Virus record (IMG/VR): IMGVR_UViG_3300029288_000059 | Span: 32,001-96,000 of that record | Length of the DNA: 64,000 nucleotides | From: a virus | Taxonomy: Duplodnaviria; Heunggongvirae; Uroviricota; Caudoviricetes | Direction: 5' to 3' (one strand) | Shown here: positions 20,236 through 49,449 of the stretch, piece after piece | Position numbering within the stretch: position 1 is the stretch's first letter | Layout of the letters: every line of letters begins with the position of its first letter | The notes under the pieces: model-generated | Database searches by the model: none | Told to the model about the DNA's origin: nothing | What the model saw: the letters and a program-made list of their open reading frames with translations, nothing else | Translations under genes and position numbers: made by a program

Positions 20236-20424
20236 ATGAAAAGAGCAATAGAACCTTATATTGTTAAGGTTAATCAATATAATGATGATGTACCTAAATA
20301 TAGTAAATCTATAATCACAAAACGTGATACTGATATTCGTTGCAATGAATTACCTGATATGTTTCATAATACTGTGAGTATAAATGATTTTAAATATACG
20401 AACAACATACTAATACGATGGTGA
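20236..20424 (+). CDS. LEPY-family protein
   Basis: MKRAIEPY; SIITKRD; FKY. Confidence 0.6.
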   Translation: MKRAIEPYIVKVNQYNDDVPKYSKSIITKRDTDIRCNELPDMFHNTVSINDFKYTNNILIRW

Positions 20425-20430
20425 CAATGA

Positions 20431-20856
20431 ATGTATAGAACGCTGGAACCATATAATGAACTAGAATCAATAACAAGGAGGTTCTTTGCACATGGTCATC
20501 TAACTCCTAGTAATGTGAACAAAGCACGTTTAAATGTATCGAAGGGATTGCCAGTATATCAATATATTGATGGTAATGGGTTTTATGGAATTGTTTGGAG
20601 TGGAGTAAAGATTAGTAATCTTATTTCACGTTTTGAAATAAAAACATTCGTTGGTAACTCACATGAAGTTGAACAGAATTTTAAATATGTACTTGGTAAT
20701 TTTAAATTGTTAAACTCACCAACTAATAGTTATATATCAAACTTTAATAACTGTCCTTTGTTTATAGGTGGTAAATTTAGTTGTGATGTCCCGTTTAATA
20801 TCGGACTAACTATTAATGAGAAATGCCAAATTGAAATTTATTCGGGTGAGACATGA
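20431..20856 (+). CDS. LEPY-family protein with one LRR-like unit
   Basis: MYRTLEPY; FKYVLGNF; CPLFIGGKFSC. Confidence 0.7.
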   Translation: MYRTLEPYNELESITRRFFAHGHLTPSNVNKARLNVSKGLPVYQYIDGNGFYGIVWSGVKISNLISRFEIKTFVGNSHEVEQNFKYVLGNFKLLNSPTNSYISNFNNCPLFIGGKFSCDVPFNIGLTINEKCQIEIYSGET

Positions 20857-21080
20857 GACGCACATTAGAACCCATTAATATGATGATTATAATATCAGAA
20901 CCAATAAATCACTATATTAATGCTATTGAACGTACGAATTCATTTAGAGATGATTGCTATACATCAAGTTTTAAATTTCGAACTTATGATTATAAGTTCA
21001 TTGATTTCGGTATACAACATCCAATACTCCTATTGCCATATAACTCTTTTGGACTGAATGATTATTATTTTCACTATTAA
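20853..21080 (+). CDS. LEPY-family protein
   Basis: MRRTLEPI; ATGA-coupled to previous gene. Confidence 0.55.
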   Translation: MRRTLEPINMMIIISEPINHYINAIERTNSFRDDCYTSSFKFRTYDYKFIDFGIQHPILLLPYNSFGLNDYYFHY

Positions 21081-21143
21081 CTATTTCAACCTTATATGTT
21101 ATGATGGATAACATTGAATGTTTATTAATAATGAGGATGGTTA

Positions 21144-21470
21144 ATGAAAAGAAATTTAGACCCATATATTAAGTATCCAAACTATTATACATTTGATAAA
21201 CCATGTATTCATTATTTATTACAACGTGAAATGATAGAAACAGTAACCAATGTCATTAGTCGTCCTTGTCAAACAATCATACTTGATAGTAATAATCATT
21301 TAAGTAGATTGAAATATGTGAGTTGTGAGTACGTTAGTTTATATGATATGAGATGGTCTTCTCGTTTGAATCAACCATTTATTGGCTACAAGTATTCTCA
21401 TCTTACGGGTGAGTGGGTTGATACTAAGTCATATGGGACAATAATAAAAGGTCATATTATGAATGTATAG
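21144..21470 (+). CDS. LEPY-family protein
   Basis: MKRNLDPY; NVISR; LKYVS; IIKG C-cap. Confidence 0.65.
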   Translation: MKRNLDPYIKYPNYYTFDKPCIHYLLQREMIETVTNVISRPCQTIILDSNNHLSRLKYVSCEYVSLYDMRWSSRLNQPFIGYKYSHLTGEWVDTKSYGTIIKGHIMNV

Positions 21471-21819
21471 AAACTTAGAACCAACAAACAATGAAATACT
21501 AATGGGTTGTATGGCTGGAATATTCCCCAATGATAGAACTACTGATATTAAGTTTCCCACCCCAATCATGCTTGGCTCACCATTAACATCGAATTATAAT
21601 TTTCATTTAATCTGTAATAGTAGATGTAACAATGTTGTTACTAGACATAAATGTATTTTATTAATTAATAATAGTAATATTATGGGTCATGTTTTGAAGT
21701 ATATTAATGGAACATTAACCATTCGCCCAGTAGAACGATGTAAATTTCTAAAAGGTACAAATGGATTTCCAAAATATGTGAGAGAAATAGATTTACGTTT
21801 ACCCTTTTATAATATATGA
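21463..21819 (+). CDS. LEPY-family protein
   Basis: MYRNLEPT; NVVTR; LKYING; FPKYV. Confidence 0.65.
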   Translation: MYRNLEPTNNEILMGCMAGIFPNDRTTDIKFPTPIMLGSPLTSNYNFHLICNSRCNNVVTRHKCILLINNSNIMGHVLKYINGTLTIRPVERCKFLKGTNGFPKYVREIDLRLPFYNI

Positions 21820-21846
21820 TGTTAATTAACATACTGAGTTTAAGAA

Positions 21847-22245
21847 ATGGCTATTAATTCAATACGGTGCTTAGAACCTTATGATATGAGTAAAGCCCAA
21901 AATATAGTAATAGATTGGGATTTATATAGTAGTCGGTATGGTTTTGAGTTGTATTATACCAACATGATAACAAGGGATGATGTTTGTTTAGCAATAATGG
22001 GTATTACGTCATTACCAAAATTTAAGTATTGTGGTGATACTTTTTATGTTCACAATAATAAATTGTCTAGTTTAAAAGGTAGTCCTATTTATGTAGGTGG
22101 CGATTTCCATTGTGAATTGAATAAGTTGACGAGTTGGGAAGATGGACCAATAGTCGTAAATGGGGAAGTTCGTTGTTGTGATAATAAGACAATGATTAAA
22201 TTACCTAAGAATTTATTAGTTAGAGGTAAATTTATAAATGTTTAG
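21847..22245 (+). CDS. LEPY-family protein with LRR-like repeats
   Basis: IRCLEPY; NMITRDDV; LPKFKY; LSSLKGSPIYVGGDFHC; VRGKFIN C-cap. Confidence 0.75.
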   Translation: MAINSIRCLEPYDMSKAQNIVIDWDLYSSRYGFELYYTNMITRDDVCLAIMGITSLPKFKYCGDTFYVHNNKLSSLKGSPIYVGGDFHCELNKLTSWEDGPIVVNGEVRCCDNKTMIKLPKNLLVRGKFINV

Positions 22246-22648
22246 AGAGTTAGAGCCATATAGTGAGAATAGTCTAACAAAACATTACCTTAAGAGGAAT
22301 AATGATTTAGGTTGGTATGATACCGTACCTAACTTAATCGGAAGGGACAATATCTTTATATATAACGGTATATCACATATTGATTGTAGTTTCCTATATC
22401 AATTCGTAGTACCAATATGTGATTTAAAAAATATAATTACTAGACAATCCGTTGGATGTGTTACATTTCAACGTAATAATATTATAATGAAATTCAAGTA
22501 TATGACTAATTCAATTACTTCTAGTGGTGATTGTGGGGCTTGTTGCTGGATACATAGTCATGTATTAACAAACAAGATGAAACAACGTATATTAGATAGT
22601 GGTAATTTTAATAATGGAGTCTATGACGGCACCTTATTTATGGAATGA
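22238..22648 (+). CDS. LEPY-family protein
   Basis: MFRELEPY; NIITR; KFKY. Confidence 0.65.
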   Translation: MFRELEPYSENSLTKHYLKRNNDLGWYDTVPNLIGRDNIFIYNGISHIDCSFLYQFVVPICDLKNIITRQSVGCVTFQRNNIIMKFKYMTNSITSSGDCGACCWIHSHVLTNKMKQRILDSGNFNNGVYDGTLFME

Positions 22649-22664
22649 CAAGAGGAAGAACATA

Positions 22665-23159
22665 ATGTTCAATAATAGAAAGATTCAAGATGATGGTACG
22701 GTAATTCTTAACAACGACGGATTATTGGAATACTTGTATATTGATAGTTCCTTATCCAATGTTTGTTTTGAGGATACGGAAGAAGTCAAACAGTATAATG
22801 AATTAGCTAAAATATATAATTTACCAATTTTGAAAAATATAAATAACAAACAAAATAACGATTGGTTTATGCCAAATAAGTATAAGACGATGGATGTATA
22901 TGATTACTTTCATAGTATGTCGTTAAGTGAAGTACAGTTATTAAGAGTAGATGAAGAACTAATGTTATATGAAAAATATCACTTTATTAATGCTTTAAAG
23001 TTCATAATCTATTTGATTGATTACATGAAAAGTAATAGTATTATTTGGGGAGTAGGCAGAGGTAGTTCTTCTGCATCGTATTTATTGTATTTGGTTGATT
23101 TACATATGGTGGATTCATTAGCTTATAATATACCAATTACAGAATTTTTACATGATTAA
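22665..23159 (+). CDS. Stand-alone DNA polymerase III alpha (DnaE)-like fragment
   Basis: RVDEEL..Y, WGVGRGSSSASYLLYL...VD family-C polymerase motif; GAGG RBS before ATG at 22665. Confidence 0.75.
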   Translation: MFNNRKIQDDGTVILNNDGLLEYLYIDSSLSNVCFEDTEEVKQYNELAKIYNLPILKNINNKQNNDWFMPNKYKTMDVYDYFHSMSLSEVQLLRVDEELMLYEKYHFINALKFIIYLIDYMKSNSIIWGVGRGSSSASYLLYLVDLHMVDSLAYNIPITEFLHD

Positions 23160-23170
23160 GAGGTAGTAGG

Positions 23171-24067
23171 ATGAGTGAACTATATATACAACAAGATAAG
23201 GGTAAAGAATATAACTTATACAACATTAAAGATGAAGTTGTAGGTAGTTATATGTTACATCCTAAATCGGAAAATGTATTGAATGTGACTGTAAAGGGTA
23301 AATTTGTTTTACCTTATAAATTTAAATTGTATATGGATGTGTTAAAACTTAAAAAATTAGGACTTGTGATAGAGAAACAACCTAGTATTACTAAACAAGA
23401 AGAAGATATTTTATCTCAAACGTTAGATACTATGGATGATGATAACCTTGAAACGGTGAGATACATTGATAGTGTCCTACTAGACAGAATCCTGTCTGCG
23501 AAAAATCAAACGGAAGTTGATGTCATTGTGACAGATGTTAATTCTCATAAAGAGGACGAGTCATATAACACATACAGGAACGCCAATCCATCAGAAAAGG
23601 ATGATAATACTTCTATATTTAAGAATTGGTATTTACGTACATTTACCAATACGGATAAACAAATTGAACAATTAATGACGTGCTTAAATAATCGTTTAAT
23701 ACGACATGGTACGCCATTAACAGTTGATGAATTGAATTCATGTATTTTCCATATAACGCTAGAATATCGTAAGAGGTTTAAACCAAACGAAACATTAATA
23801 GAAATATATTCCTATTATGGATATCAACATTTGAAACCGAAGACTCTTGATCAAATATTACTATACCCCCCTCATTACTTTGGCAAGTATGGTAGCGATG
23901 AACATAAGTTATATTTCTTAATGGATAAAGTATCTAATAGAGATATTCCATTATCACTGTATAGATTATGCGACGCGTTTTTCACATCACTATCATTTGG
24001 ACAGTTAAACAGATATAAAGATTCTGTTAAATTAAAAGTATTTGAATCAATAATGAATTATAAGTAG
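23171..24067 (+). CDS. Hypothetical protein (YRTF-motif family)
   Basis: KNWYLRTFTNTDKQIEQLM shared with 24657 and 25709. Confidence 0.6.
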   Translation: MSELYIQQDKGKEYNLYNIKDEVVGSYMLHPKSENVLNVTVKGKFVLPYKFKLYMDVLKLKKLGLVIEKQPSITKQEEDILSQTLDTMDDDNLETVRYIDSVLLDRILSAKNQTEVDVIVTDVNSHKEDESYNTYRNANPSEKDDNTSIFKNWYLRTFTNTDKQIEQLMTCLNNRLIRHGTPLTVDELNSCIFHITLEYRKRFKPNETLIEIYSYYGYQHLKPKTLDQILLYPPHYFGKYGSDEHKLYFLMDKVSNRDIPLSLYRLCDAFFTSLSFGQLNRYKDSVKLKVFESIMNYK

Positions 24068-24078
24068 GAGGAAGAAAT

Positions 24079-24309
24079 ATGGCTAAAAGTTTTAGAGGAC
24101 AACAAGTAGATATGGATAAGTTGGTTTTAACCAACCAACAATCCATTGCTATTGGTAATGCTAATATGAATGCCCGTGGGGATATTATTGGTAAGGGTGG
24201 GAAGATTATTAAGACTCGTGAGGAACAAAATAAGGAATTTCATGAAGCCAATCTATCTAATCCTGAACCGGAAAAAGTTAGTTTGAATGATGTAAAGGTG
24301 GATAAGTAA
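24079..24309 (+). CDS. Conserved small phage protein next to co-chaperonin
   Basis: GQQVDM..L, AIGNANMNARGDIIGKGG; strong AGGAGG RBS. Confidence 0.6.
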   Translation: MAKSFRGQQVDMDKLVLTNQQSIAIGNANMNARGDIIGKGGKIIKTREEQNKEFHEANLSNPEPEKVSLNDVKVDK

Positions 24310-24310
24310 C

Positions 24311-24655
24311 ATGGGGAAGAATCAACTAATTGATGGTAAGTTAATACCTAAACCAAATGAGATTATTGTATCTAATATGGATAGAGGGTTAAAGGTAACA
24401 TTGGCTGGTATTATTGTACCAAACGATGAAATGACTGAACGAGGTATACACCCACGATGGGCTAAAGTTCATCGTGTTGGTTCTAATATCGATTATTTAA
24501 CTGCCGGACAATGGGTTCTTATTGAACATGGGTATTGGTCACATATTGTTGAAATAGTCGAAGATGGGGTTCCGTATGATTTACAAGTAATCATCAAAAA
24601 GAATATGGAACATTTATTAATGGTAAGTGATACTTGCCCAGATGGAGTAAATTAA
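24311..24655 (+). CDS. GroES-like co-chaperonin
   Basis: LIP...IIV, T.AGIIVP mobile loop, V..VG, GQWVL pattern. Confidence 0.7.
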   Translation: MGKNQLIDGKLIPKPNEIIVSNMDRGLKVTLAGIIVPNDEMTERGIHPRWAKVHRVGSNIDYLTAGQWVLIEHGYWSHIVEIVEDGVPYDLQVIIKKNMEHLLMVSDTCPDGVN

Positions 24656-24656
24656 G

Positions 24657-25697: not shown

Positions 25698-25708
25698 GGA
25701 GTTGAGAG

Positions 25709-26029: not shown

Positions 26030-26056
26030 CCCATTGACTTAGTATCATTCTTACCT

Positions 26057-28832: not shown

Positions 28833-29075
28833 ATGTATCGAGTATTAGAACCATATACGTTGAGTACTCGTCATACTATTAGTGATGCTATATGGGATGA
28901 GAACGATGATGTATCAATGGAGGAACGATTAATTTCTAAATTGCTTCGTTGTCTTTATCAGCCAATAATACGAAACCCCATCATAAAGAATTCATGTAAC
29001 TTTATGGACAGTCATGGTATCTCAAGGCCTATTAAGTATTATCAGTATTATACGCAATCTTCCAATTTAAATTAG
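28833..29075 (+). CDS. LEPY-family protein
   Basis: MYRVLEPY; IKYY. Confidence 0.6.
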   Translation: MYRVLEPYTLSTRHTISDAIWDENDDVSMEERLISKLLRCLYQPIIRNPIIKNSCNFMDSHGISRPIKYYQYYTQSSNLN

Positions 29076-30710: not shown

Positions 30711-31046
30711 ATGAGAGAATTTATTGTAGATGTTAGCCATGATGACAATGTGAATGTTTGGGTAGCTAAATGTGATGAGATTCCAGCCATAACCGAATCT
30801 ACTACATTAGATGTATTATATGAACAATTCGCCACGATGGCATCAGAAATAGCCGTATTAAATAAATTGGTTGATAAGATAGAAGATGCGGTCTTTAAAT
30901 ACGAAGGATATGTCATAAACGAAAGTGATGTAGAATTGGCTAAATTCAATCGTGAGTTTATATCACAACAAAAGAGTTTAGATGGTGATTTATTAAAAGT
31001 GATGATAGATAACCGTTATGATTTGTATGAACGTGCCGAAGAATGA
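30711..31046 (+). CDS. DUF1902/HicB-like protein
   Basis: V..D....VWVAKCDEIP..TES.TLD.L pattern. Confidence 0.55.
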   Translation: MREFIVDVSHDDNVNVWVAKCDEIPAITESTTLDVLYEQFATMASEIAVLNKLVDKIEDAVFKYEGYVINESDVELAKFNREFISQQKSLDGDLLKVMIDNRYDLYERAEE

Positions 31047-31270
31047 TTAGAGGGCTATCACCATATAAGGAAGAATGTGATGAACTAATTAACTTAGAAG
31101 TTCATAATGATTTTTATCTTCGTGATGTAATATTAGAATATAACGGTAGAAATGTTATTTTGCGGGGTAGTTTGATAATAGTTAGTGCTATAAGACTCGG
31201 ACAGGACCGTAAAAGGTTTAAGTTTTCCAAGTCATGGTTGTATGATTTTAGTATGAGGATGTTCCAATGA
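31043..31270 (+). CDS. LEPY-family protein
   Basis: MIRGLSPY; NVILRG; FKF. Confidence 0.6.
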   Translation: MIRGLSPYKEECDELINLEVHNDFYLRDVILEYNGRNVILRGSLIIVSAIRLGQDRKRFKFSKSWLYDFSMRMFQ

Positions 31271-31527
31271 AAATTAATAACTTATATGAAGAAATAGTTG
31301 AAGATGGGAAATTAGTTATCGTGATAACTAAAGGCCCTCATACAAATACAAGATTGATAATTAAAGATATGGTAATGGATAATGACGGGGTTGATTGTAC
31401 TGTCGATTACGAATATAAGGCAACGCACAACCCTAGTTTAAAACTTTATCAATCAATACTATCAAATGTTATTAATGATATGTTACTAAAATCGATTAAT
31501 GAAGTTGAACATAAGATGAGTGAGTAA
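31267..31527 (+). CDS. Hypothetical protein
   Basis: ATGA-coupled ORF. Confidence 0.5.
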   Translation: MKINNLYEEIVEDGKLVIVITKGPHTNTRLIIKDMVMDNDGVDCTVDYEYKATHNPSLKLYQSILSNVINDMLLKSINEVEHKMSE

Positions 31528-31783
31528 ATTAATGTATCGATTCTTGGAATCTTATTTTAGTGAACGGATGTATTGTGATGAACGTACCGTATTTAGATGT
31601 GATAAGAACAAAACATTATCTACTAGTTTATACGTTCGTAATATAACAGATGGTTCGTGTAGTAACATAATATATAGAAAGACATTTAGCGTTGACTTTA
31701 ATACAACATATAATTTAGATTCAAACTATAAGTATTCACTAAGAGTATTATCATATTTAAAAGGTAGAGTTGAACTCGGCTAG
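31520..31783 (+). CDS. LEPY-family protein
   Basis: MYRFLESY; NIIYR; YKY. Confidence 0.6.
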   Translation: MSKLMYRFLESYFSERMYCDERTVFRCDKNKTLSTSLYVRNITDGSCSNIIYRKTFSVDFNTTYNLDSNYKYSLRVLSYLKGRVELG

Positions 31784-31988
31784 GCAATATAAGGATATTG
31801 AAATGAAAGTAATACTATGCACGTTATTAATGTTTATACCCTCAACAACCTCTATACTCGCAGCTGCATGGCTGTCTTATCATGATAAGACAGGATGGGG
31901 GTGGTTTATATTTACTGCAATATTAACTTATGGTGGTAGTATTAAATTTTCAGACGATAAGACGGATAATAGTGATGATGCAAATTAG
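31770..31988 (+). CDS. Small membrane protein
   Basis: Two hydrophobic segments; GWGWFIF. Confidence 0.55.
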   Translation: MNSARQYKDIEMKVILCTLLMFIPSTTSILAAAWLSYHDKTGWGWFIFTAILTYGGSIKFSDDKTDNSDDAN

Positions 31989-32238
31989 AGGTCTTGAACC
32001 ATACAAAGATGTTCCAACAATATGTGATTGGTTATGGGATTACGAAGTAATATACATATCGACAAGAATTACGGACAGTAATAGGATATCAAGATATCCT
32101 AATAATAATATGAGTATTTCAAAACATAACATACAGTTTTCTATGGAGGCCGATAGAACATATATTATAACATCAAAGTATTATCCTTCAATGACAGCTG
32201 AAAAATACAGAATTAAACAAATAATGCTACATGATTAG
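31975..32238 (+). CDS. LEPY-family protein
   Basis: MMQIRGLEPY. Confidence 0.6.
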   Translation: MMQIRGLEPYKDVPTICDWLWDYEVIYISTRITDSNRISRYPNNNMSISKHNIQFSMEADRTYIITSKYYPSMTAEKYRIKQIMLHD

Positions 32239-32442
32239 TACTGTTAAGTTATCTTCTTTACCAATATCAGTCACTCTATCTTTATAACCCTTATAATATT
32301 TAAACTTAATATTAGTAGACATATTAAAACGAGCAATACAACGTTCAAACTTAAGAATTACATCTATGTCGTAAGGGAATGGTAATATGTATCGGTCTTC
32401 TCGCATTGACATACATGGTTCGATATTTCGGTATTGCCTCAT
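32227..32442 (-). CDS. LEPY-family protein
   Basis: MRQYRNIEPC; KFKYYKG. Confidence 0.55.
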   Translation of the reverse strand: MRQYRNIEPCMSMREDRYILPFPYDIDVILKFERCIARFNMSTNIKFKYYKGYKDRVTDIGKEDNLTVLIM

Positions 32443-32756
32443 TATAACCACCATTGTTTGTTTAAATCATAAGAACTAATGTGATGCGTTCTATGTGGGG
32501 AAGTGCGTTTTATCTCTATCTTTTTTTGAAATTGTTTCATTGCTTCACGTAATATACAATCGTCTAAGAATCGTTCAAACTGTATTAATTCAATTTTGTT
32601 CGGTGAGTATTTGGTAGCGATAGGAGATGAGTTATATACATAGTTACGACTAATGACGGACTCACATTTGGTTATGCTTATTCCAACGTTACCCTTATAA
32701 CTATATTTTTCTAGTAATATAGCATCATCAGTTATTGAGATTGTACGATAGGTCAT
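32442..32756 (-). CDS. Hypothetical protein, possibly degenerate LEPY-family member
   Basis: MTYRTI start and VISRN; lies inside the LEPY array. Confidence 0.45.
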   Translation of the reverse strand: MTYRTISITDDAILLEKYSYKGNVGISITKCESVISRNYVYNSSPIATKYSPNKIELIQFERFLDDCILREAMKQFQKKIEIKRTSPHRTHHISSYDLNKQWWL

Positions 32757-32764
32757 AACTACTC

Positions 32765-33142
32765 CTAATAATTGTAGTTGATATTATTAATTATAATAGT
32801 ACCTTTATCCTCGGGTGGGGTATTAAAATCCCATCCTCGAAAAATCCTACCAACGTATAATGGACAACCATCGATTGTCCCTATATGATTATCTTGACAT
32901 ATAAAGTCACCACCTACATAACGAGGACTACCCGTTAGTGAATATAATTCTATATGATTACATATAAACGTACCACTCACATATTTGAAATGTGGTAGTT
33001 GGTATTTCGTATCCATTATAACAGTCCCACGGTCGATAATATTATACAATGCACAATCATTGTATACTGTAATGCTTAATTCCCCCGTCCGTACTGATGA
33101 GTATGAGTAATTGTCATTGTATGGTTCTAAGTTTCTATTCAT
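32765..33142 (-). CDS. LEPY-family protein with LRR-like repeats
   Basis: MNRNLEPY; NIIDR; LPHFKYVSG; SLTGSPRYVGGDFIC. Confidence 0.75.
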   Translation of the reverse strand: MNRNLEPYNDNYSYSSVRTGELSITVYNDCALYNIIDRGTVIMDTKYQLPHFKYVSGTFICNHIELYSLTGSPRYVGGDFICQDNHIGTIDGCPLYVGRIFRGWDFNTPPEDKGTIIINNINYNY

Positions 33143-33542
33143 TTATAAATTCACCACTAATAGTAACTCCTTCAGACGAGGTAATATAGTTATGGAAATA
33201 ATTTAAACTACCACCTACATAGATAGGACAATATTTTAAACTTGTTAATTGGTTATTATCACAATCAAAATCTCTACCCACATAAATCGGACAACCCTTT
33301 AAACTTGTTAGTTTCATGTTACTACAAGTAAAGTCACCACCTACATAGATAGGGCATCCCTTTAAACTTGTTAATTGGTGATGATAACAAGCGAAATCGC
33401 CACGGGCATACTTGAAATGTGGTAATGTTTTAACCCCTGAATCATTCAAGTATTCATTATCACGAGTAATAATGTTAACATCACTAACTCGATATTTAAT
33501 AGATCTAACATCTGAACGGTATGGGTTAAGTTGTCTATTCAT
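33135..33542 (-). CDS. LEPY-family protein with three LRR-like repeats
   Basis: MNRQLNPY; NIITRD; LPHFKY; 3x LTSLKxCPIYVG. Confidence 0.8.
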   Translation of the reverse strand: MNRQLNPYRSDVRSIKYRVSDVNIITRDNEYLNDSGVKTLPHFKYARGDFACYHHQLTSLKGCPIYVGGDFTCSNMKLTSLKGCPIYVGRDFDCDNNQLTSLKYCPIYVGGSLNYFHNYITSSEGVTISGEFINE

Positions 33543-33960
33543 TTTGAAAACGACCTATGATTTTAATATTACGTGGTCTCTTCAAACTAATTCGATTGTC
33601 GTAACATGAAAATACATTACCTACATACTTAGGACTATATTTTAAATCAATTAAGTCATTGTTGTTACAAGTGAAATTACCTCCAACATACAACGGTGCA
33701 TATTGTAATGTTGTTAAATTATTTATATCACAATCAAAATCTCTACCCACATAGATTGGACTACCCTTTAAACTTGTTAGTTTCATTCCACTACAAGTAA
33801 TAAACCCCGCAACATATTTAAAGTTAGGTAGTCTATCATTATGTAATGTACAAGAACCTCTAATAATCATATTCGTAAATCCATCCATCCTATCGTATAA
33901 ACGAGTTAATGGTGATGAATTGCATTCTAATTGAGTATATGGTTCTAAGTCTCTATTCAT
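33535..33960 (-). CDS. LEPY-family protein with three LRR-like repeats
   Basis: MNRDLEPY; NMIIRG; LPNFKYVAG; repeats; IIGRFQNE C-cap. Confidence 0.8.
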   Translation of the reverse strand: MNRDLEPYTQLECNSSPLTRLYDRMDGFTNMIIRGSCTLHNDRLPNFKYVAGFITCSGMKLTSLKGSPIYVGRDFDCDINNLTTLQYAPLYVGGNFTCNNNDLIDLKYSPKYVGNVFSCYDNRISLKRPRNIKIIGRFQNE

Positions 33961-34351
33961 TTTGAAAGTTACCCAATATTGTTATATGAACGGGGTGTGA
34001 TAGTTTTATTTTATTATTATAGCAATAGAATCCTCGTCCTGTATATAGAGGACTGTAATCCAAATTAGTTAATTGGTTATCCTCACAATGAAACCCACCA
34101 CCTACATAAATCGGGCAACCTTCTAAACTGGTTAATTGATTATCGTTACAGGTGAAATGACTACTCACATATTTAAATAGGGGTAGGGAATTCCCGTCTG
34201 CACGACAGTACCCTCTAATGATAATATTATTACTACCATTTAGACGAAGATAATAGTTTTGTTGTATATTATAATCGGATTCACATCTCCATTCTATTTT
34301 ACTATATGGCTCTAGTTTCCGTTTATATGGATTTATATAACTTTTCTTCAT
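33953..34351 (-). CDS. LEPY-family protein with two LRR-like repeats
   Basis: KRKLEPY; NIIIRG; LPLFKYV; NQLTSLEGCPIYVGG. Confidence 0.8.
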   Translation of the reverse strand: MKKSYINPYKRKLEPYSKIEWRCESDYNIQQNYYLRLNGSNNIIIRGYCRADGNSLPLFKYVSSHFTCNDNQLTSLEGCPIYVGGGFHCEDNQLTNLDYSPLYTGRGFYCYNNKIKLSHPVHITILGNFQNE

Positions 34352-35562: not shown

Positions 35563-37067
35563 TGTTATTTAACATCATATAATCTATTACATTTTATAAC
35601 AAAATACAACATTATTTGTATATAAAACATATTGACTGACTTATTAATTTAGTACATAATAACGTTAAATAATAAGGAATTTATATGATACGTACAAGTA
35701 CTCATTCTATACAAGACAGCAATACAGGTAAGTTAAACAACTTGGCTATATTGCATAATGAGTACATACGGGTATGTACGCAACTGATTGATTATTGTTG
35801 GGATAATCCAGTTATTACTTCTTATACATCAAGTGATAACATAATACATACTACTACTTTTGACGTATCACGTAATTTATTTGACTTGCCTGTATTTTTA
35901 CCAACTAACATAACAAAACTAGCCAAAATTGATACCTTTTTAACGGGTAAATCCCTTAAAAGTATCATTACTAAAGTGAATGGTATGCTTAAAGCAAGTA
36001 CTATTAAACAAAGAAAACGCATATACCAATATAATAAATTAAAGCAAGAGGGATATACTAAAAAACAACTATCTTCCCTTATTAAGAAAATAAAACAAAA
36101 TATACCACAAAAGCCAAATTGTTCCAATATCAATATGGAATACGATACCAATTGTTGTAAATTCTATTATACTAATAAAAATAACAATGAATTCAATGGG
36201 TTTGATGGCTTTTTACGTCTTACCGCCATTACTAAAAGTAAGATGAATATATGTATTCCTATTAAGATGACTAAACATTCTAATAAATTTAAAGATATTG
36301 GAAAGATGAAGACTTCCTTCCTAATAACACCAAAGAAAGTAGATATTAGATGGGATATACCAACACCACAACTCTGCACAACTGGTGAAGTTGTTGGTGC
36401 GGACCAAGGACTGTTAGATGTATTGACCCTATCAGATAAACAAGTAACAACCAAAGTAGACATACATGGACATACGCAGAAATCCATTATAGACAAAGTA
36501 TGTAGGAAGAAAAGAGGAAGTAAGGCATTTAAACGTGCTAAACAACATCAAGTCAATTTTGTTAATTGGTCTATCAACCAACTCAATTTTGATAATGTTA
36601 AGCAAGTAAATTTAGAAGATATATGGAACATTAATTATAAGAAGAATTCATGTTCAATGCTAACGCATTGGCAGAATACTATTATCAGAGACAAGTTGTT
36701 GTCTGTTTGCGAGCTACTCGGGGTCCGAGTAATCAAACAGGCATCTACTTATAGAAGTCAAAGATGTAGTGCGTGTGGACAAGTGCGGAAGTCGAATCGG
36801 AAAGGCAAGCTCTATACCTGCCATAATTGTGGTTTAGATATGGATGCAGATTTAAATGCATCTATCAATCTAAGTATGGATTTACCTGAAATCCCGTGGA
36901 ATTTACGCAAACTTAATTTGAATAGAAAAGGGTTTTACTGGACAAAAGACGGGTTGTTTAGTGATAACACCTATCTAGATAGATTAAGCGATGGGAGTTT
37001 ACAGTCCCCATCTCCGAATAAACTTAAAACAATACAAAGTTAATAATGTATTGGTTTAGGTGACTGT
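35563..37067 (+). mobile_element. Non-autonomous IS607-type tnpB element 1
   Basis: Left end TGTTA(T/A)TTAAC..CATATAATCTATTAC shared with element 2; right end ..GTATTGGTTTAGGTGACTGT; TGT at both borders; removal restores GGAG-N7-ATG TTG AGA TAT TTA GAA CCT TAT. Confidence 0.85.
35685..37043 (+). CDS. tnpB: TnpB RNA-guided endonuclease
   Basis: RuvC GADQG / NLED / DADLNA all intact; CSACG and CHNCG zinc finger. Confidence 0.9.
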   Translation: MIRTSTHSIQDSNTGKLNNLAILHNEYIRVCTQLIDYCWDNPVITSYTSSDNIIHTTTFDVSRNLFDLPVFLPTNITKLAKIDTFLTGKSLKSIITKVNGMLKASTIKQRKRIYQYNKLKQEGYTKKQLSSLIKKIKQNIPQKPNCSNINMEYDTNCCKFYYTNKNNNEFNGFDGFLRLTAITKSKMNICIPIKMTKHSNKFKDIGKMKTSFLITPKKVDIRWDIPTPQLCTTGEVVGADQGLLDVLTLSDKQVTTKVDIHGHTQKSIIDKVCRKKRGSKAFKRAKQHQVNFVNWSINQLNFDNVKQVNLEDIWNINYKKNSCSMLTHWQNTIIRDKLLSVCELLGVRVIKQASTYRSQRCSACGQVRKSNRKGKLYTCHNCGLDMDADLNASINLSMDLPEIPWNLRKLNLNRKGFYWTKDGLFSDNTYLDRLSDGSLQSPSPNKLKTIQS

Positions 37068-37087
37068 TGAGATATTTAGAACCTTAT
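36985..37087 (+). ncRNA. 3' part of predicted omegaRNA (reRNA) plus flanking guide; 5' limit unknown
   Basis: Hairpins GATGGG..CCCATC and CAATAC..GTATTG; the second is conserved at all three right ends; guide = flank TGAGATATTTAGAACCTTAT. Confidence 0.6.
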
Positions 37088-37360
37088 AATTCAATACAAC
37101 GTACTCCTATTATACATTTAAAGAATACTAATATGATTAGTCGTGAATCCATATATGTTCGTTGGTATCATAATTCAATTAAATATATTGGTTCCGATGT
37201 ATACGTTAGAGAGGATGAATTTATAATTAACAATTACCCTCGATATATTGGCGGTAAATTAATGGTATCAGGAGTTAGTTATACATCGATGGTTAATGAT
37301 TTCACACGTTATATTAATGATCATGGTATCGTTATAATGAAAGGATTAAGTTTTGGTTAG
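37067..37360 (+). CDS. LEPY-family protein whose start codon was split by element 1
   Basis: (M)LRYLEPY; NMISR; IKYIG; YPRYIGG; may now start at TTG after AGGTG. Confidence 0.65.
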   Translation: MRYLEPYNSIQRTPIIHLKNTNMISRESIYVRWYHNSIKYIGSDVYVREDEFIINNYPRYIGGKLMVSGVSYTSMVNDFTRYINDHGIVIMKGLSFG

Positions 37361-37640
37361 GTATTTAGAGCCTTATATCCAACATATAGATATTAATGAT
37401 GTAGTTAGATATAAACGCTATATCTGTCGTAAGAACCTATCATTAGAAAAACTTAATATGGATAGTATATTATCAATCAAATATATTAACGGTAAATTGT
37501 ATTATAAATCATTAGACCAATGGAAGAATCACGATTTTACTTTTTATTGTAATACATTGGAATATCAGAACCTATGGTGTGATTACCCAACCATTTTTCT
37601 TGGAAGTAGATTTCATGAATGTGGTATAATCCATGTATAG
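37353..37640 (+). CDS. LEPY-family protein
   Basis: MVRYLEPY; IKYING. Confidence 0.65.
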   Translation: MVRYLEPYIQHIDINDVVRYKRYICRKNLSLEKLNMDSILSIKYINGKLYYKSLDQWKNHDFTFYCNTLEYQNLWCDYPTIFLGSRFHECGIIHV

Positions 37641-37899
37641 AAATTTAGAACCATACAAAAAAATAATACATAATAATAGTGAAGTTTATAGTACTTCCCA
37701 TGAGTATAAATTTACTTGTAAATCTATAGAACAGAAGTATAAGAATCAAGTATTGCGTTTTGATAGCTACTATTCCAGCGACATATATTACAATTTCTAT
37801 TTTGGTTATAGAATATTCAATAACGTAGGAATGGATAATCAACCATTGAAATATGGTACTAATATATTTGAACATATGGGCGTCTTTTTGGAACTGTAA
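37633..37899 (+). CDS. LEPY-family protein
   Basis: MYRNLEPY; NQVLR. Confidence 0.65.
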   Translation: MYRNLEPYKKIIHNNSEVYSTSHEYKFTCKSIEQKYKNQVLRFDSYYSSDIYYNFYFGYRIFNNVGMDNQPLKYGTNIFEHMGVFLEL

Positions 37900-37912: not shown

Positions 37913-38197
37913 ATGATTAGACTTCTTGAACCATACTTAACTTATAGTTTATCCCATAATAAATTAAGAGATATGCATTAGTATTCTTATAATTGTATTA
38001 CTAGTGGTAGTAAACAGATTCTGTGTAGTCACGAATTATGTTGTAATTTAATTCACCAAGTTACGATTATTCATAATGATAAACGTGATGATAGTGACTA
38101 TTATAGAATGTTTTTACGAATGAAGTATTTTAATATGAATTATAATGAACGCTCATACGAATTCGTTCATGTGAAACATTGTGATATAGGTCGTTAA
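37913..38197 (+). pseudogene. LEPY-family gene with in-frame TAG (37979-37981)
   Basis: MIRLLEPY...DMH* then the frame stays open for 71 more codons to TAA at 38195. Confidence 0.65.
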
Positions 38198-40827: not shown

Positions 40828-41178
40828 TTGAATAGAAACTTAGAATCATACCAATCAGACATTGAATTTAGTGAGTATCGAGTTAGTGATGTTAATATTA
40901 TCACTCGTGATAAGGTAGACTTGAGCGGTTTATCTTTAGTAACATTACCTCATTTCAAAAGTATAGGTGGTAATTTAGATTGTCGTCATAACCAATTAAC
41001 TAGTTTAAAAGGATGTCCTACTTATATAAGTGGTACTTTAGATTGTCGTTATAATCAATTAACAAGTTTAGAAGGATGTCCTACCAGTATAGGTGGTGGT
41101 TTATATTGTTATCATAACAAAGACAAATTATCGTGTCCTAAAGGGGTTGAGATTGGAGGGAAATTTATAAATTCATGA
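40828..41178 (+). CDS. LEPY-family protein, chimeric with a PcfJ-type repeat block
   Basis: MNRNLESY..YRVSDVNIITRD like 33135; VDLS...LPHFKSIGG and C-cap like 14223/58542. Confidence 0.8.
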   Translation: MNRNLESYQSDIEFSEYRVSDVNIITRDKVDLSGLSLVTLPHFKSIGGNLDCRHNQLTSLKGCPTYISGTLDCRYNQLTSLEGCPTSIGGGLYCYHNKDKLSCPKGVEIGGKFINS

Positions 41179-43951: not shown

Positions 43952-43984
43952 AATCCCATAAATATAACAGTATGGGAGTTAATA

Positions 43985-45004
43985 ATGGTTAATATATTAA
44001 AGTTATTAGATGAGAAACGTTCACACGATGGATTGAACGTAAGAGTATCAACATATCAATTTTTATCAAAATATAAAAATGACCCAAATGCTTATCTACA
44101 TACATCAGCTATTAAGAAGATTGGTATTAAACCATTAACAAATGCAGAAGATGATACTCCATTAGGCGTTTATACTTTTAAAATAATGGATATATGGAAA
44201 CGGATTGAAGCTAGTAAGGATAAGAATGATTTATCATATCAACTAACTTACTATGGTGGTCCTGAATTATACATACTGCATCCAACTAAACCAATCATGG
44301 ATGAAAATACTTATACATTAAGTATGTATAAGAAAGATTTGAAACGATTAAATATTACACAAAAACGTGAATTAGAATTATTGTCCGATACTGGATATAA
44401 GTATAAGAATCTAAAACTACCATTATATAGATTTTGGGAAATAACTAAGTTATATGTTTGTGACTTCGACTATGGTGCTAATAACCCAGTTAAATGGAAT
44501 AACTTGTTAAGAAAGTTAGGCTATTATATTTTTAGTGATGATGGGGTTGGTTATATTCATGACCACGAACCAGTTCAAACGGTATTCTTAACAACTAATG
44601 CATTTGAAGTAATTGATACACATTATAACAATGAAGTATATAAAGTTAAGGTAGATGATAAAGAGTTACGTTCAAACCGTTTATCATCTATAATGAATAC
44701 TAAAACTTTACATCCATCTTACGATGATGAAATTCGTCCTGAACAATACCGTAATGTAAAAGTATGGAATGTTAAGGAAGTTGGATTACAAGAGTTACAT
44801 GACTTCTATGATGATTATGGTAGGACTGGTATGACTATTAATGTTGGTAAATTAGTTATCCCACATACTGTTATTGATTCATTAGACTATATATGTGATA
44901 ATATGAATAAATTTAAAACTATTAATGTTAATACTGTACATATTGATGGTGGTAAGAAAGAGGATTATGATTTAATCCCCTTTAAGTATAATGGTATTGT
45001 ATAA
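43985..45004 (+). CDS. MVNILKL-leader late protein
   Basis: MVNILKLLDE leader; CATAAATA at 43957; GGGAG RBS. Confidence 0.65.
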   Translation: MVNILKLLDEKRSHDGLNVRVSTYQFLSKYKNDPNAYLHTSAIKKIGIKPLTNAEDDTPLGVYTFKIMDIWKRIEASKDKNDLSYQLTYYGGPELYILHPTKPIMDENTYTLSMYKKDLKRLNITQKRELELLSDTGYKYKNLKLPLYRFWEITKLYVCDFDYGANNPVKWNNLLRKLGYYIFSDDGVGYIHDHEPVQTVFLTTNAFEVIDTHYNNEVYKVKVDDKELRSNRLSSIMNTKTLHPSYDDEIRPEQYRNVKVWNVKEVGLQELHDFYDDYGRTGMTINVGKLVIPHTVIDSLDYICDNMNKFKTINVNTVHIDGGKKEDYDLIPFKYNGIV

Positions 45005-45017
45005 TCTGTTATGATAA

Positions 45018-46523
45018 TGTTAATTAACTTCATATAATCTATTACATTTTATAATATAATACAACATTATTTGTATATAAATAATATATTGACTTCTTTG
45101 TTAATGAAGTACATACTAACTTTAAATAATAAGGAAGTTATATGATTAGAACTAGTACTCATAATATACAACAAAGCAATACAGGTAAGTTATCTAACTT
45201 AGCTATATTGCATAATGAGTATATACGTGTATGTTCTCAACTGATTGATTATTGTTGGGATAATCCAGTTATTACTTCATATACGTCAAGCGATAACATA
45301 ACCCATACTACTACTTTTGATGTATCACGTAATTTATTTGATTTGCCTGTATTTTTACCAACTAACATAACAAAATTAGCTAAAATTAATACTTTTTTGA
45401 CAGGTAAATCACTTAAAAGTATCATTACTAAAGTGAATGGTATGCTTAAAGCAAGTACTACGAAACAAAGGAAACGTATATACCAATATAATAAATTAAA
45501 ACAAGATGGATATACTAAAAAGCAATTATCACAACTGATTAAAAAAATAAAACAAAATATACCACAGAAACCAAATTGTTCCAATATTAATATGGAATAC
45601 GATACCAACTGTTGTAAATTCTATACAACTAATAAAAATAACAATGAATTCAATGGGGTTGATGGCTTTTTACGTCTTACTGCCATTACTAAAAGTAAGA
45701 TGAATATATGTATTCCTATTAATATGACTCGTCACTCGAATAAATTCAAGACTATTGGTAAAATGAAGACTTCCTTCCTAATAACACCAAAGAAAGTAGA
45801 TATTAGATGGGATATTCCTACTCCTGTATTACGCACAACTGGTAGTATAGTCGGTGCAGACCAAGGACTATTAGACGTATTAACCCTATCAGATACACAA
45901 GTTACCACTAACGAAGACATACATGGACATACTCAAAAATCCATACTAGACAAGGTATGTCGTAAGAAAAGAGGTAGTAAGGCCTTTAAACGTGCTAAAC
46001 AACACCAAGTCAACTTCGTTAATTGGTCAATCAACCAACTCAATTTTGATAATGTTAAGCAAGTAAATTTAGAAGATATATGGAACATTAACTATAAGAA
46101 GAATTCATGTCAAATGCTAAAACATTGGCAGAATACTATCATCAGAGACAAGTTGTTGTCTGTTTGTGAATCACTCGGGGTCCGAGTGGAGAAGCAGGCA
46201 TCTACTTATAGAAGTCAAAGATGTAGTTGTTGTGGGCAAGTGCGGAAATCGAATCGGAAAGGGAAAACCTATACGTGCCATAATTGTGGTTTAGAACTAG
46301 ATGCAGACTTAAATGCATCTATCAATCTAAGTATGAAGTTGCCTGAAATCCCGTGGAATATCCGCAAACTTAATTTAAATAGAAAAGGGTTTTACTGGAC
46401 TGCCAATGGCATATTCAGTGATAATACCTATCTAGATAGATTAAGTGATGGGCGTTTACAGTCCCCATCACCAAAAAACTTAAAACAATACAAGGTTAAT
46501 AATGTATTGGTTTAGGTGACTGT
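45018..46523 (+). mobile_element. Non-autonomous IS607-type tnpB element 2
   Basis: Close copy of element 1 along its whole length; TGT at both borders. Confidence 0.85.
45142..46515 (+). CDS. tnpB: TnpB RNA-guided endonuclease
   Basis: GADQG / NLED / DADLNA; CSCCG, CHNCG; highly similar to 35685. Confidence 0.9.
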   Translation: MIRTSTHNIQQSNTGKLSNLAILHNEYIRVCSQLIDYCWDNPVITSYTSSDNITHTTTFDVSRNLFDLPVFLPTNITKLAKINTFLTGKSLKSIITKVNGMLKASTTKQRKRIYQYNKLKQDGYTKKQLSQLIKKIKQNIPQKPNCSNINMEYDTNCCKFYTTNKNNNEFNGVDGFLRLTAITKSKMNICIPINMTRHSNKFKTIGKMKTSFLITPKKVDIRWDIPTPVLRTTGSIVGADQGLLDVLTLSDTQVTTNEDIHGHTQKSILDKVCRKKRGSKAFKRAKQHQVNFVNWSINQLNFDNVKQVNLEDIWNINYKKNSCQMLKHWQNTIIRDKLLSVCESLGVRVEKQASTYRSQRCSCCGQVRKSNRKGKTYTCHNCGLELDADLNASINLSMKLPEIPWNIRKLNLNRKGFYWTANGIFSDNTYLDRLSDGRLQSPSPKNLKQYKVNNVLV

Positions 46524-46697
46524 AAAAACTCTTAATCCTTGTTTTATTGATTTATTAAGGAGATGTTTTGTCCTTCTTGCATATATTGAATGAATCTTTC
46601 TCTTCTGTTTCAACTACTGAATTAATGATTGTCTATTGACTTAGTAATGAAATACTATTATACTTAAATTATAAATTGAACATTAGGAGTAACAATA

Positions 46698-46994
46698 ATG
46701 AGTTTATTTTATGTAACCACTAATGCATTAGAGTGTGGAATTGGTTTATATCATGGTGAATTATTGGAGAATAATAAAGTAGTCTTACAAGCAGATAAAA
46801 AGGAATACGAGTTAAACGTTGATTGTTTTACCAGTTTAACGGCTGCACGTAATAAGTTACGGGAAATGACTGATGATGAGATTAACCGTTTAGAGTGTAA
46901 TATAAGCAATTTAAAGAATACGTTGAATCGTTTAAAGAATTCACCTTTTTGTTCTAGTAATTTTATTGACTGTGAAGATGTTAATTTAACATGA
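46698..46994 (+). CDS. Hypothetical early protein
   Basis: TTGACT-N17-TATACT promoter at 46636; AGGAG RBS. Confidence 0.6.
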   Translation: MSLFYVTTNALECGIGLYHGELLENNKVVLQADKKEYELNVDCFTSLTAARNKLREMTDDEINRLECNISNLKNTLNRLKNSPFCSSNFIDCEDVNLT

Positions 46995-47368
46995 CTAGAT
47001 ATTTAGAACCATATAAAGAACAGAAGGGAAGTTACCCACGTATATGTAGTGATAGGTATTATGAATTGAACGCTAGTCATAAATGGAAAAATATCATCAC
47101 TCGTTATTCATTAGTATTAACAACTCGTGCTACTCCAACTCATATAATTCCGAGTATTAAGTACATTAATTGGAATATAACAATGGAGGACGGTAGTTTG
47201 TTGCCCGTGTGTAAGAACCCCTTTTATGTAGGAAATGATATTTTTACAAATGGAAATACATCAAATGACTTAGTAGAACATTATGTATTAGGCGAACATA
47301 CAAAATGGTATTGTAATGTTTCTAAAAATAGTTCACCTTTTTATGTAACTCATTGTAGCAGTATATAA
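46991..47368 (+). CDS. LEPY-family protein
   Basis: MTRYLEPY; NIITR; PSIKYI; PFYVG. Confidence 0.7.
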   Translation: MTRYLEPYKEQKGSYPRICSDRYYELNASHKWKNIITRYSLVLTTRATPTHIIPSIKYINWNITMEDGSLLPVCKNPFYVGNDIFTNGNTSNDLVEHYVLGEHTKWYCNVSKNSSPFYVTHCSSI

Positions 47369-47739
47369 TGAGATATTTAGAGCCATATATCAAGCATGAT
47401 AATTCTATATTAAATAATACGTATGAAGACGTTGTACTTCGTAGTCGTGAAGAATCGAATTATAGTAATATAATAGTGAGAGGTACGGCAGCGATTGGTT
47501 GTAGTAGAAGTTGGTTTCGTCCTTATTATAAGTATGTAAAAGACAACTTTTTAGGTAGTCCGATTTATGCAGGAGGATTATTATGTTGTAATAATTTTGG
47601 TTTAAAATCATTAGACAGATTTCCATTAGCGATAGGTAAAGATTTATATTATTCAAATAATAATATTCCCATTCACGAAGTTATATCAAAAATTCATCCT
47701 TTTGTTGGTGGGTTACTTATAAGTAATAAATATACTTAG
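47368..47739 (+). CDS. LEPY-family protein with LRR-like units
   Basis: MRYLEPY; NIIVRG; YKYV; GSPIYAGG; LKSLDRFP. Confidence 0.7.
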   Translation: MRYLEPYIKHDNSILNNTYEDVVLRSREESNYSNIIVRGTAAIGCSRSWFRPYYKYVKDNFLGSPIYAGGLLCCNNFGLKSLDRFPLAIGKDLYYSNNNIPIHEVISKIHPFVGGLLISNKYT

Positions 47740-47769
47740 GATTTTTAATTTGTTAATGGGGTATTCATA

Positions 47770-48462
47770 ATGCGTATAGATGATATAGAAGTAGGATTGA
47801 ATGAGGAAATACTAACTAATCTTACTCATAACCCTAACGAATTTCCAAGTAAGTATAGATTCGAATTAGGATTAAAAATTGTATCTAATAATGTACATAA
47901 TATTATACAAAACATTGCTGATGCATATATTATATCACTATTAGATAAACGCAGTGTATTTGATATTATTAATGAAGAACATGGAAGTATAAGTGATACA
48001 TTAGCCGTTATAAATGATGCATTACATAATTATTCAGACCATGATAGTTTTTTAAAGTTTGTATCCGCCAAAGATTGCAAACAAGAACTACAAAAATTAG
48101 TTAAGATATCAAATCTTGTTTTAGACCGTTCTTATTCATTAAGAGTTAATATTGATAAAACCTTACCTCAAGAATTTCAAAGTTTGTTATTTCAATGTTG
48201 TTGTACATTAATGGATGTTTGCTCTAATATAACATTAGGGTGTCGTAGTGTTGTAACTAATGTATATAGAGAACCTAAGATGCAATTTTCTATTGGTAAG
48301 TTATCTATGAAAGTAAGAGATTTTTTATATGCCGTTCAAAAGAATAGTAATCCTATTGAGGAAGATGAAGCGTGCGGCTTATCAGAATTAGAAGTGCAAC
48401 AACTGCGTGCATTGAGAAAATTAAAGAAACAATTAGATGAGATGCAGTTTAAAGACATTTAA
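47770..48462 (+). CDS. Hypothetical protein
   Basis: 230-aa ORF. Confidence 0.55.
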   Translation: MRIDDIEVGLNEEILTNLTHNPNEFPSKYRFELGLKIVSNNVHNIIQNIADAYIISLLDKRSVFDIINEEHGSISDTLAVINDALHNYSDHDSFLKFVSAKDCKQELQKLVKISNLVLDRSYSLRVNIDKTLPQEFQSLLFQCCCTLMDVCSNITLGCRSVVTNVYREPKMQFSIGKLSMKVRDFLYAVQKNSNPIEEDEACGLSELEVQQLRALRKLKKQLDEMQFKDI

Positions 48463-48465
48463 TCA

Positions 48466-48663
48466 TCATTCATAAAGACGACCTGATAAGTATTTACGGT
48501 CGGGTAATCCGTCATTAAGATGTTGTTTATTAAACCAAAAATCACCTCTTATTATTATATTTTTGTTGTTACTGGATATGTAACCAATTGAATAATTCTA
48601 GTTAATATATGGGTACTCGTCGTATTCCTCATTATATGGTTCTAAATAACGGAATCTCATCAT
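48466..48663 (-). pseudogene. LEPY-family gene with in-frame TAG (48600-48598)
   Basis: MMRFRYLEPYNEEYDEYPYIN*NYSIGYISSNNKNIIIRGDF...LPDRKYLSG; family motifs continue past the stop. Confidence 0.7.
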
Positions 48664-48941
48664 CAAACTCGTTTTTCTAATTCTGATATAGAACAGTTCT
48701 TTAGCTCATTAATACCCGGTTCTTTAATTACATTATTTATCAACATCATCGAACCATTTAGGAATAACGTTAATAGGAAAATCCCGTGCATACCAAAAGA
48801 ACCACTATATAGCATCATCAAACCATTTAGGAATATTAGTCCGAAGATAAACTTACGAATCTTTAGAAATTTACGCCGATTATACGATACTGAATATAAG
48901 TATGCATTATATAACGATTGATATCTTGTGAATTTATCCAT
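48663..48941 (-). CDS. Small membrane protein
   Basis: Two hydrophobic helices each containing FLNG.M; GAGGAG RBS. Confidence 0.55.
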   Translation of the reverse strand: MDKFTRYQSLYNAYLYSVSYNRRKFLKIRKFIFGLIFLNGLMMLYSGSFGMHGIFLLTLFLNGSMMLINNVIKEPGINELKNCSISELEKRV

Positions 48942-48990
48942 TATTTAAGTCTCCTCTTTTGTGATATATTATTGTATTCATCGAATTATG

Positions 48991-49449
48991 TCAATCTGTT
49001 AGGCGTCTAAATTTCCCATGGACTATTAATGTTGGTGGTTGTATTGGTATACCAGTACGATTAGTATAAATAAAATCACCCCGTACTTCAGTATTAATAT
49101 CTTCTAAATTGGTTATATTGGTACTACTATAAATTGCATTCTTGCCTATATAGAGAGGACTATATTTGGCAGAAGTAAGTTCATAATTTAATGAACAGTC
49201 AACGTCACCACCTACATATAACGGACAACCATATAATGATTCTATCTTCAAATTACAAATACAGAATTTACCAGCCACATATTTAAATTTTGGTAAATTA
49301 ATAATACGCGAACCATATAAGAAGACATCATTCCGAGTTATAATATTACCCGTGGTGCATAAGTAACGAGTGGTAATATTATGTTCACGCCATTGTTCTT
49401 CAGGATATCTACTATTAAAGATTTGATATGGTTCAATAGTCCTAATCAT
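48991..49449 (-). CDS. LEPY-family protein with LRR-like repeats
   Basis: MIRTIEPY; NIITRNDV; LPKFKYVAG; SLYGCPLYVGG; start overlaps RNA ligase stop. Confidence 0.75.
   Translation of the reverse strand: MIRTIEPYQIFNSRYPEEQWREHNITTRYLCTTGNIITRNDVFLYGSRIINLPKFKYVAGKFCICNLKIESLYGCPLYVGGDVDCSLNYELTSAKYSPLYIGKNAIYSSTNITNLEDINTEVRGDFIYTNRTGIPIQPPTLIVHGKFRRLTD

Follow-up and report, generated by a model that had tools for sequence, protein, structure and literature searches.

What does a phage gain from dozens of small genes whose products share a short N-terminal sequence and then diverge widely? This question is raised by a stretch of 64,000 nucleotides (hereafter termed the window), which comprises bases 32001-96000 of a 289,811 bp viral contig (IMG/VR record IMGVR_UViG_3300029288_000059; 31% GC, standard genetic code). 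The genes in question encode a leader of the form RxLEPY followed by bodies that resemble leucine-rich repeat (LRR) proteins, and are referred to here as the RxLEPY family. Our analyses suggest that these genes probably encode a repertoire of small binders that act in the cytoplasm early in infection. It is also plausible, with a likelihood slightly under even, that the leader and the first two rungs of the fold dock together on one shared partner.

RxLEPY leaders occur 47 times across the 289.8-kb genome and head about one-tenth of its genes. An earlier note on the window listed about 25 leader-bearing open reading frames (ORFs). All of these are present, and we count 25 members, of which 23 are intact and 2 are interrupted by an in-frame TAG. 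The leader motif lies within the first 20 residues of 33 of the 413 genes called from ATG starts, whereas chance would provide 0.24 (judged by internal motif frequency) or 0.31 (with a maximum of 3 in 1000 shuffles). The leader is thus strongly enriched over shuffled ORF starts, which is one of the comparisons on which the earlier note had staked the family.

In 44 aligned sequences, R3, L5, P7, Y8, I25, R27 and Y45 are each at least 90% conserved and K44 is invariant. The leader arginine is residue 3 in 30 of 39 cases, the glutamate is replaced in 8 of 47 leaders and is followed by proline, and the residue two before it is variable and mostly polar. For comparisons of selection, we used contigs of one relative whose core genes are ~85-90% identical. 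Nine syntenic leader pairs, one or two of which may be paralogous replacements, contain 12 synonymous and 0 replacement changes at five key positions. Five of these pairs differ at the x position of the leader, and identity is only 49% over the ten residues that follow the leader. Leader codon choice roughly tracks genome usage. Because the key positions change only synonymously, and because the arginine is encoded by CGN in 14 of 46 leaders, the leader is a protein feature, as the earlier note had proposed. It is retained in members that have lost every repeat, and is tandemly duplicated in two members. When 1.84 billion representatives were searched with a profile built on the leader and the first rungs, of the type advised in the earlier note, full-length matches came only from this phage and its close relatives, such that the leader appears restricted to this lineage. 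Longer fused forms of the leader were not found, which is weak evidence. A Tat signal was rejected because the proteins lack a hydrophobic region.

The bodies behind the leader adopt a recognizable fold. AlphaFold2 (AF2) models of two members form a beta-solenoid with mean predicted local distance difference test (pLDDT) values of 88.6 and 91.0, and in the second model the values from residue 21 on are 89-98. Comparison with known structures using VIA-align yielded 82 chains at Z of at least 8, and all 50 matches listed are of the LRR type. The best of these reach Z 11-13, and include InlC2 (12.9), InlA (12.4), SDS22 (11.4) and LIC11098 (11.0). Foldseek searches of PDB and BFVD returned nothing at E≤0.001 and only weak LRR or L-domain matches. 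The proposal that the genes encode small solenoids is therefore supported by models and structural alignment alike. A homodimer prediction for one member scored 0.00 and gave no answer, which counts neither way.

The scaffold described in the earlier note holds for the leader, the NIIxR segment and the FKY rungs, whereas the C-cap is present in some members only, and its range of 0-3 repeats is exceeded outside the window by members with up to about 7. Across 42 repeats from 21 members, the 21-amino-acid unit has conserved hydrophobic positions 2, 6, 8, 13 and 16 and an asparagine at position 11; an intact copy is missing from about half of the members. Positions 5, 7, 9 and 10 have entropies of 2.6-3.2 bits in the same 42 repeats, compared with less than 1 bit at core positions. 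In LRR proteins, the strand face bearing these four positions is the one used for binding, and its hypervariability here agrees with the proposed diversifying binding face. Identity between paralogues averages 32% (range 15-64%).

Judged by its sequence, the 21-residue repeat itself is not new, and the same unit is widespread in phage proteins and in tandem arrays with other N-termini. For example, a 192-kb IMG/VR contig carries a tandem array of ~14 genes (L001:1942-12218) with the same LRR behind a leader resembling the T4 capsid-targeting sequence (CTS) and a conserved N-terminal domain. In another metagenomic lineage (L017, L019, L020 and L021), the same LRR has expanded behind a constant Trp/Gly-rich N-terminus. 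Because that lineage bears a different constant N-terminus, constant heads appear to have been swapped repeatedly on the LRR repeat.

A match to an already characterized family, which would have contradicted the earlier note, was sought in profile libraries and none rose above cut-off. Pfam gave no assignment for the members tested (LRR_4 is sub-threshold on a long paralogue), NCBIfam matches to InlJ and SspH2 fall far under the cut-off, and PHROG gave no assignment. Defence and anti-defence families in PADLOC and PHROG produced no meaningful match, although the proteins may have such a role without being represented in these libraries. One might also ask whether the ligand of a conserved basic and aromatic patch (R3, Y8, R27, K44 and Y45) is not a protein but nucleic acid or a nucleotide signal. 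The near-invariant residues are indeed Arg, Lys and Tyr, and most of these small proteins are basic (median isoelectric point 8.6). However, no similarity to known nucleotide sponges was detected, and we regard this explanation as the least probable of those considered.

The divergence of the bodies could reflect useful diversification, relaxed constraint, or both. Eight family pairs have a ratio of nonsynonymous to synonymous substitution rates (dN/dS) of 0.35, compared with 0.05 for nine core genes at an equal dS of 0.52, and the family thus evolves sevenfold faster. Members without repeats have values of 0.31-0.44. From these ratios it follows that the family genes are translated and constrained, as the earlier note had presumed, but evolve quickly. 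At repeat positions 5, 7, 9 and 10, for which the earlier note had sought per-position estimates, pooled nonsynonymous divergence (pN 0.54) exceeds synonymous divergence (pS 0.39-0.45). The excess lies on the variable face, and is suggestive only, given that the pairs lack independence and that saturation may affect them.

Individual members illustrate the range of forms. On the plus strand, the first is a minimal protein of 62 amino acids that consists of the leader and two rungs with no repeat (20236-20424). It is followed by members of 141 amino acids with a long spacer and a degenerate repeat (20431-20856), 75 amino acids and degenerate (20853-21080), 108 amino acids (21144-21470), 118 amino acids with a dN/dS of 0.51 from a partial comparison with the relative (21463-21819), 132 amino acids with 2 repeats, a C-cap and a dN/dS of 0.32 (21847-22245), and 136 amino acids with no intact repeat and a dN/dS of 0.36 (22238-22648). 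A single degenerate member of 80 amino acids lies at 28833-29075 (plus strand).

Two regions that the earlier note had treated as arrays, 31043-34351 and 46991-49449, are not single arrays, because their members occupy both strands with unrelated genes between them. The first region holds plus-strand members of 75 amino acids (31043-31270), 83 amino acids (31532-31783, degenerate) and 86 amino acids (31978-32238, degenerate). Its minus-strand members have 71 amino acids (32227-32442, degenerate), 125 amino acids (32765-33142, 2 repeats, dN/dS 0.29), 135 amino acids (33135-33542, 3 repeats plus C-cap), 141 amino acids (33535-33960, 3 repeats plus C-cap, dN/dS 0.33, and the source of the AF2 model with pLDDT 88.6) and 132 amino acids (33953-34351, with a second leader-like copy ahead of the leader). 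The second region holds members of 125 (46991-47368) and 123 (47368-47739) amino acids on the plus strand, and, on the minus strand, a broken member in which the leader is separated from the first rung by an in-frame TAG at 48600 (48466-48663) and a member of 152 amino acids whose first 8 nucleotides supply the stop codon of an upstream RNA ligase gene (48991-49449). Between these regions, all on the plus strand, are members of 97 amino acids whose present start is TTG (37067-37360), 95 amino acids with a TTG start (37353-37640) and 88 amino acids, degenerate (37633-37899), a broken member with an in-frame TAG at 37979 (37913-38197), and a single member of 116 amino acids with 2 repeats, a C-cap and a TTG start (40828-41178).

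Comparison with relatives indicates how such a set arises. In the relative (contig L012), gene 33135 is missing from the same array, and a fusion at the leader has placed the N-terminus of 33953 in front of the body of 33535. The gene at genome position 263257 is missing from the relative as well, and a different paralogue lies behind its gyrase A gene. In other strains, repeat number shifts in units of 63 nucleotides. On these sequence comparisons, the dynamics of the family appear to be those of ordinary recombination-driven birth and death. More elaborate mechanisms were considered and rejected. For a mobile cassette with a junction remnant, an upstream remnant is present in only 2 of 23 first-in-run genes, and no dedicated cassette site was found. 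For integron-like diversification or a diversity-generating retroelement, there is no conserved recombination site or template repeat, leader DNA varies synonymously, and paralogues are 15-64% identical.

Of five truncated members, three are interrupted by an in-frame TAG (window positions 37979 and 48600, and genome position 264874), with 25-72 codons open beyond it, and are best read from their sequences as nonsense mutants. An alternative genetic code was rejected because long ORFs stop at TAG with unrelated frames beyond, the gain in coding density from TAG read-through is not above that from TGA read-through, and an amber tRNA was looked for and not found. A tRNA-like element predicted by ARAGORN, with an undetermined anticodon, adjoins the only clear tRNA (Ser) at genome positions 223835-223908 (L006:13835-13908).

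Gene junctions give rise to a further explanation, in which the genes are relaxed or decaying duplicates inflated by recombination and the leader is a module for translation start or coupling. In tandem runs, the C-cap doubles as the ribosome-binding site (RBS) and ATG of the following gene through an 8-nucleotide overlap, and in ~14 members the TAG of the upstream gene spans codons 2-3, which could force an arginine at codon 3. The five truncated copies, together with the repeat-number changes and whole-gene losses seen in relatives, fit this explanation as well. However, TAG is impossible in the 14 leaders with CGN-coded arginine, all changes at L, E, P and Y are synonymous, and even members without repeats remain constrained. 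This explanation is already weakened and we consider it decidedly unlikely.

If the genes are instead binders, the time and place of their action become relevant. Promoters and late motifs were called by consensus scan rather than from mapped starts, and promoters were assigned only to genes that one can reach without interruption. With this approach, sigma70-type promoters lie upstream of 29 of the 30 assignable family genes and of 10 of 11 operons (p=0.006 versus one half). PA5oct is known to use the same sigma70-type motifs (PMC7318152). A late motif is found within 60 nucleotides of none of 48 family genes, compared with 9 of 17 structural genes and, among the CTS-like genes, 6 of 17 (15 of 34 together). 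Family genes often end replication or repair operons. The early, host-takeover setting suggested in the earlier note is consistent with these consensus calls. In addition, an extended early-promoter motif recurs with high conservation at ~25 genome sites, many of which face away from a late promoter in divergent orientation.

The CTS-like genes provide an internal reference. A second shared leader, which ends L-L-N/D-E, is found at window positions 14223-15521, 43985-45004, 50939-51259 and 58542-59777 and in ~8 more genes genome-wide. Genes with this leader are mostly late, with late sites preceding 9 of the 11 to which a promoter could be assigned. Five long paralogues combine it with a PcfJ-like domain and the same LRR, and lack the RxLEPY leader. 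The T4-type CTS is a propeptide of ~10 N-terminal residues ending in (I/L)-x-E that is cleaved by the prohead protease (PMC9026906), and the head proteins and CTS-like genes of this phage bear L-L-(x)-E sites.

These observations bear on whether RxLEPY is a second capsid-loading signal, such that the proteins enter the host by injection, as the internal proteins of T4 do. The same LRR does carry CTS-like leaders, both here and in another phage with its 14-gene array, the family consists of small and mostly basic proteins, and the leader is at the extreme N-terminus. However, RxLEPY lacks an (I/L)-x-E processing site and tolerates replacement of its glutamate, its promoter context is early whereas CTS-like genes are mostly late, and the genome already has a separate CTS-like leader. 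Given early promoters and the missing site, the family falls short on each CTS test that was feasible, and a loading signal is very improbable.

The early binder repertoire can thus be described in outline. A small LRR binder gene would have undergone a lineage-specific expansion by birth and death, with expression early in infection from host sigma70-type promoters and with the products acting in the infected cytoplasm. The variable face of each paralogue might bind a different host target, such as a defence or regulatory protein. The constant element, comprising the RxLEPY tail and conserved residues on the surface of rungs one and two (R27, K44 and Y45), could dock on one shared phage or host partner, much as the adaptors of F-box or RxLR repertoires do. 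Selection keeps the leader, R27 and K44-Y45 even after the repeats are lost, which is compatible with a docking element.

Several points weigh against this proposal. The dN/dS is below 1 and derives from eight pairs of one relative, and positive selection is at most suggested. Truncation affects at least five members and an insertion sequence has hit one, and part of the divergence is therefore decay. The promoter calls are consensus matches, some of them several kb upstream. Finally, the leader sits where a widespread phage LRR family has its N-cap helix, and a role purely in cis is possible because I25 and T26 of the top rung look in need of cover.

This last point forms the basis of the strongest rival explanation, in which the L, P and Y residues of the leader pack against I25 and the Tyr ladder of the exposed first rung in place of a capping helix, and each gene encodes an early binder or inhibitor that works on its own, with no partner common to the family. 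In the widespread family, the N-cap hairpin is homologous to what follows the spacer here, and the capping helix occupies the place of leader plus spacer. The spacer between leader and first rung is 15-50 residues long (mode 16) and never less than 15. The leader, NIIxR and FKY are conserved together, and a member at genome position 214880 combines a decayed leader with R27K. Furthermore, LxPY turns are common capping elements. However, the leader has low confidence in both AF2 models (block means of pLDDT 55-73, no helix), persists where no solenoid remains to be capped, and is absent from the five long paralogues with the same LRR. A near-invariant charged arginine and spacers of up to 50 residues are also unusual for a cap. 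We therefore judge a purely capping role to be somewhat unlikely.

If the leader docks on a partner, a ClpA-like ATPase of this phage (genome 211712-214015) is a candidate only, by analogy to SPO1 Gp53. It has an IGF loop and adjoins a DnaJ-like gene, which is followed by two family remnants (L006:1712-4610, genome 211712-214610). This DnaJ-like neighbour has an HPD motif, a DnaJ_C match and an internal leader-like hexapeptide at residue ~80. In one variant of the docking proposal, which we consider unlikely, the proteins would be F-box-like adaptors, with ~45 LRR receptors using one tag to bring diverse host proteins (e.g. defence effectors) to a single machine. That machine may be, for example, the phage ClpA-like unfoldase with host ClpP, leading to degradation or sequestration.

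Neighbouring genes record other events. An IS607-like TnpB element (35565-37066, plus strand), which is outside the family, splits the original ATG from codon 2 of member 37067, and the empty insertion site is present in a contig of run X3. The right end of the element brings an RBS-like sequence before TTG, and the member may therefore still be read. All four similar TnpB copies in the genome appear inserted just after an ATG. A TnpB guide as the driver of the family was rejected because other leaders either do not pair with the guide at its first bases or lie out of register. An RxLEPY gene directly adjoins each of two separate DnaE-like polymerase fragments (window 22614-23159 and L002:6423-7022; PHROG 11127 and 11778). 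The leader was also compared with putative sliding-clamp-binding peptides of this phage, namely the ends of the C-terminal polymerase piece and of its neighbour, which are assumed to bind the clamp; both read x-L-F-x-F/Y and differ from the leader. A PolB of the phage is likewise split (genome 139373-143572), with an intein-like piece and an endonuclease-like ORF in between.

On sequence grounds, the source appears to be a jumbo phage of the PA5oct/Atu_ph07/BF group, and its SbcC is 39.5% identical to those of PA5oct and Paride. Cultured phages gave no DNA-level match, and protein matches to them are confined to the LRR part. An identical stretch is present on a 272-kb ENA contig, the best metagenome match for the phage is from landfill, which may be its source, and strain sequences come from wastewater, landfill and freshwater runs. 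The phage sigma factor is RpoH-like and 31-39% identical to proteins from proteobacterial metagenome-assembled genomes. A search for the host through TnpB found no relatives in genomes and only distant phage matches.

About one-tenth of the genes of this phage thus belong to one undescribed family. In the literature searched we found neither the RxLEPY family nor its leader described, and no set of LRR proteins reported to bear an early tag other than a CTS; a name for the repeat class may exist in the Matsushima 2021 survey of viral LRRs (PMID 33052487). Families with a tag and a variable body in T4-like and jumbo phages have hitherto been read as capsid cargo, and the RxLEPY family points to a second class that is early and cytoplasmic. 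If the tag has a common receptor, a six-residue peptide would offer a handle on a jumbo phage that neutralizes many host proteins together, and a portable docking tag on a small LRR scaffold could be used to target bacterial proteins. If the adaptors are F-box-like, programmable degradation or sequestration might be achieved. If the leader is only a cap, the genes still provide a natural library of ~45 miniature LRR binders for anti-defence screens.

Comparisons with known systems place the family among several partial parallels. Like the internalin, SDS22 and Leptospira-type members of the LRR superfamily, it has the same fold, repeat consensus and variable concave face, but differs in its lineage-specific leader, very short solenoids (0-7 repeats) and loss of repeats with the leader kept. 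[quoted passage not shown] However, the RxLEPY tag is unlike the CTS, has no (I/L)-x-E and follows early promoters, and the late cargo of this phage has its own CTS-like leader. SPO1 Gp53, a phage adaptor of ClpCP within a host-takeover module (PMC6873191), is a precedent for a small early phage protein that acts on a host machine as an AAA+ protease adaptor. Compared by description only, it is a single unrelated protein with no repertoire of repeats behind a shared tag.

In scale and lineage restriction, the family resembles expansions in other jumbo phages, such as the ~35 zinc-ribbon copies of Bacillus phage G (PMC7824862) and arrays of more than 30 similar genes (PMC13282480). Those expansions involve a different domain, and the accessible portions of these two sources report no architecture of constant tag and variable binder. 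Repeat binders that have diversified behind a short constant motif, and that evolve by birth and death, are also familiar from oomycete RxLR effectors, poxvirus ankyrin/PRANC proteins and F-box-LRR proteins. The RxLEPY genes have no homology to these, and their setting is a bacterial host in which no signal peptide, F-box or secretion is involved.

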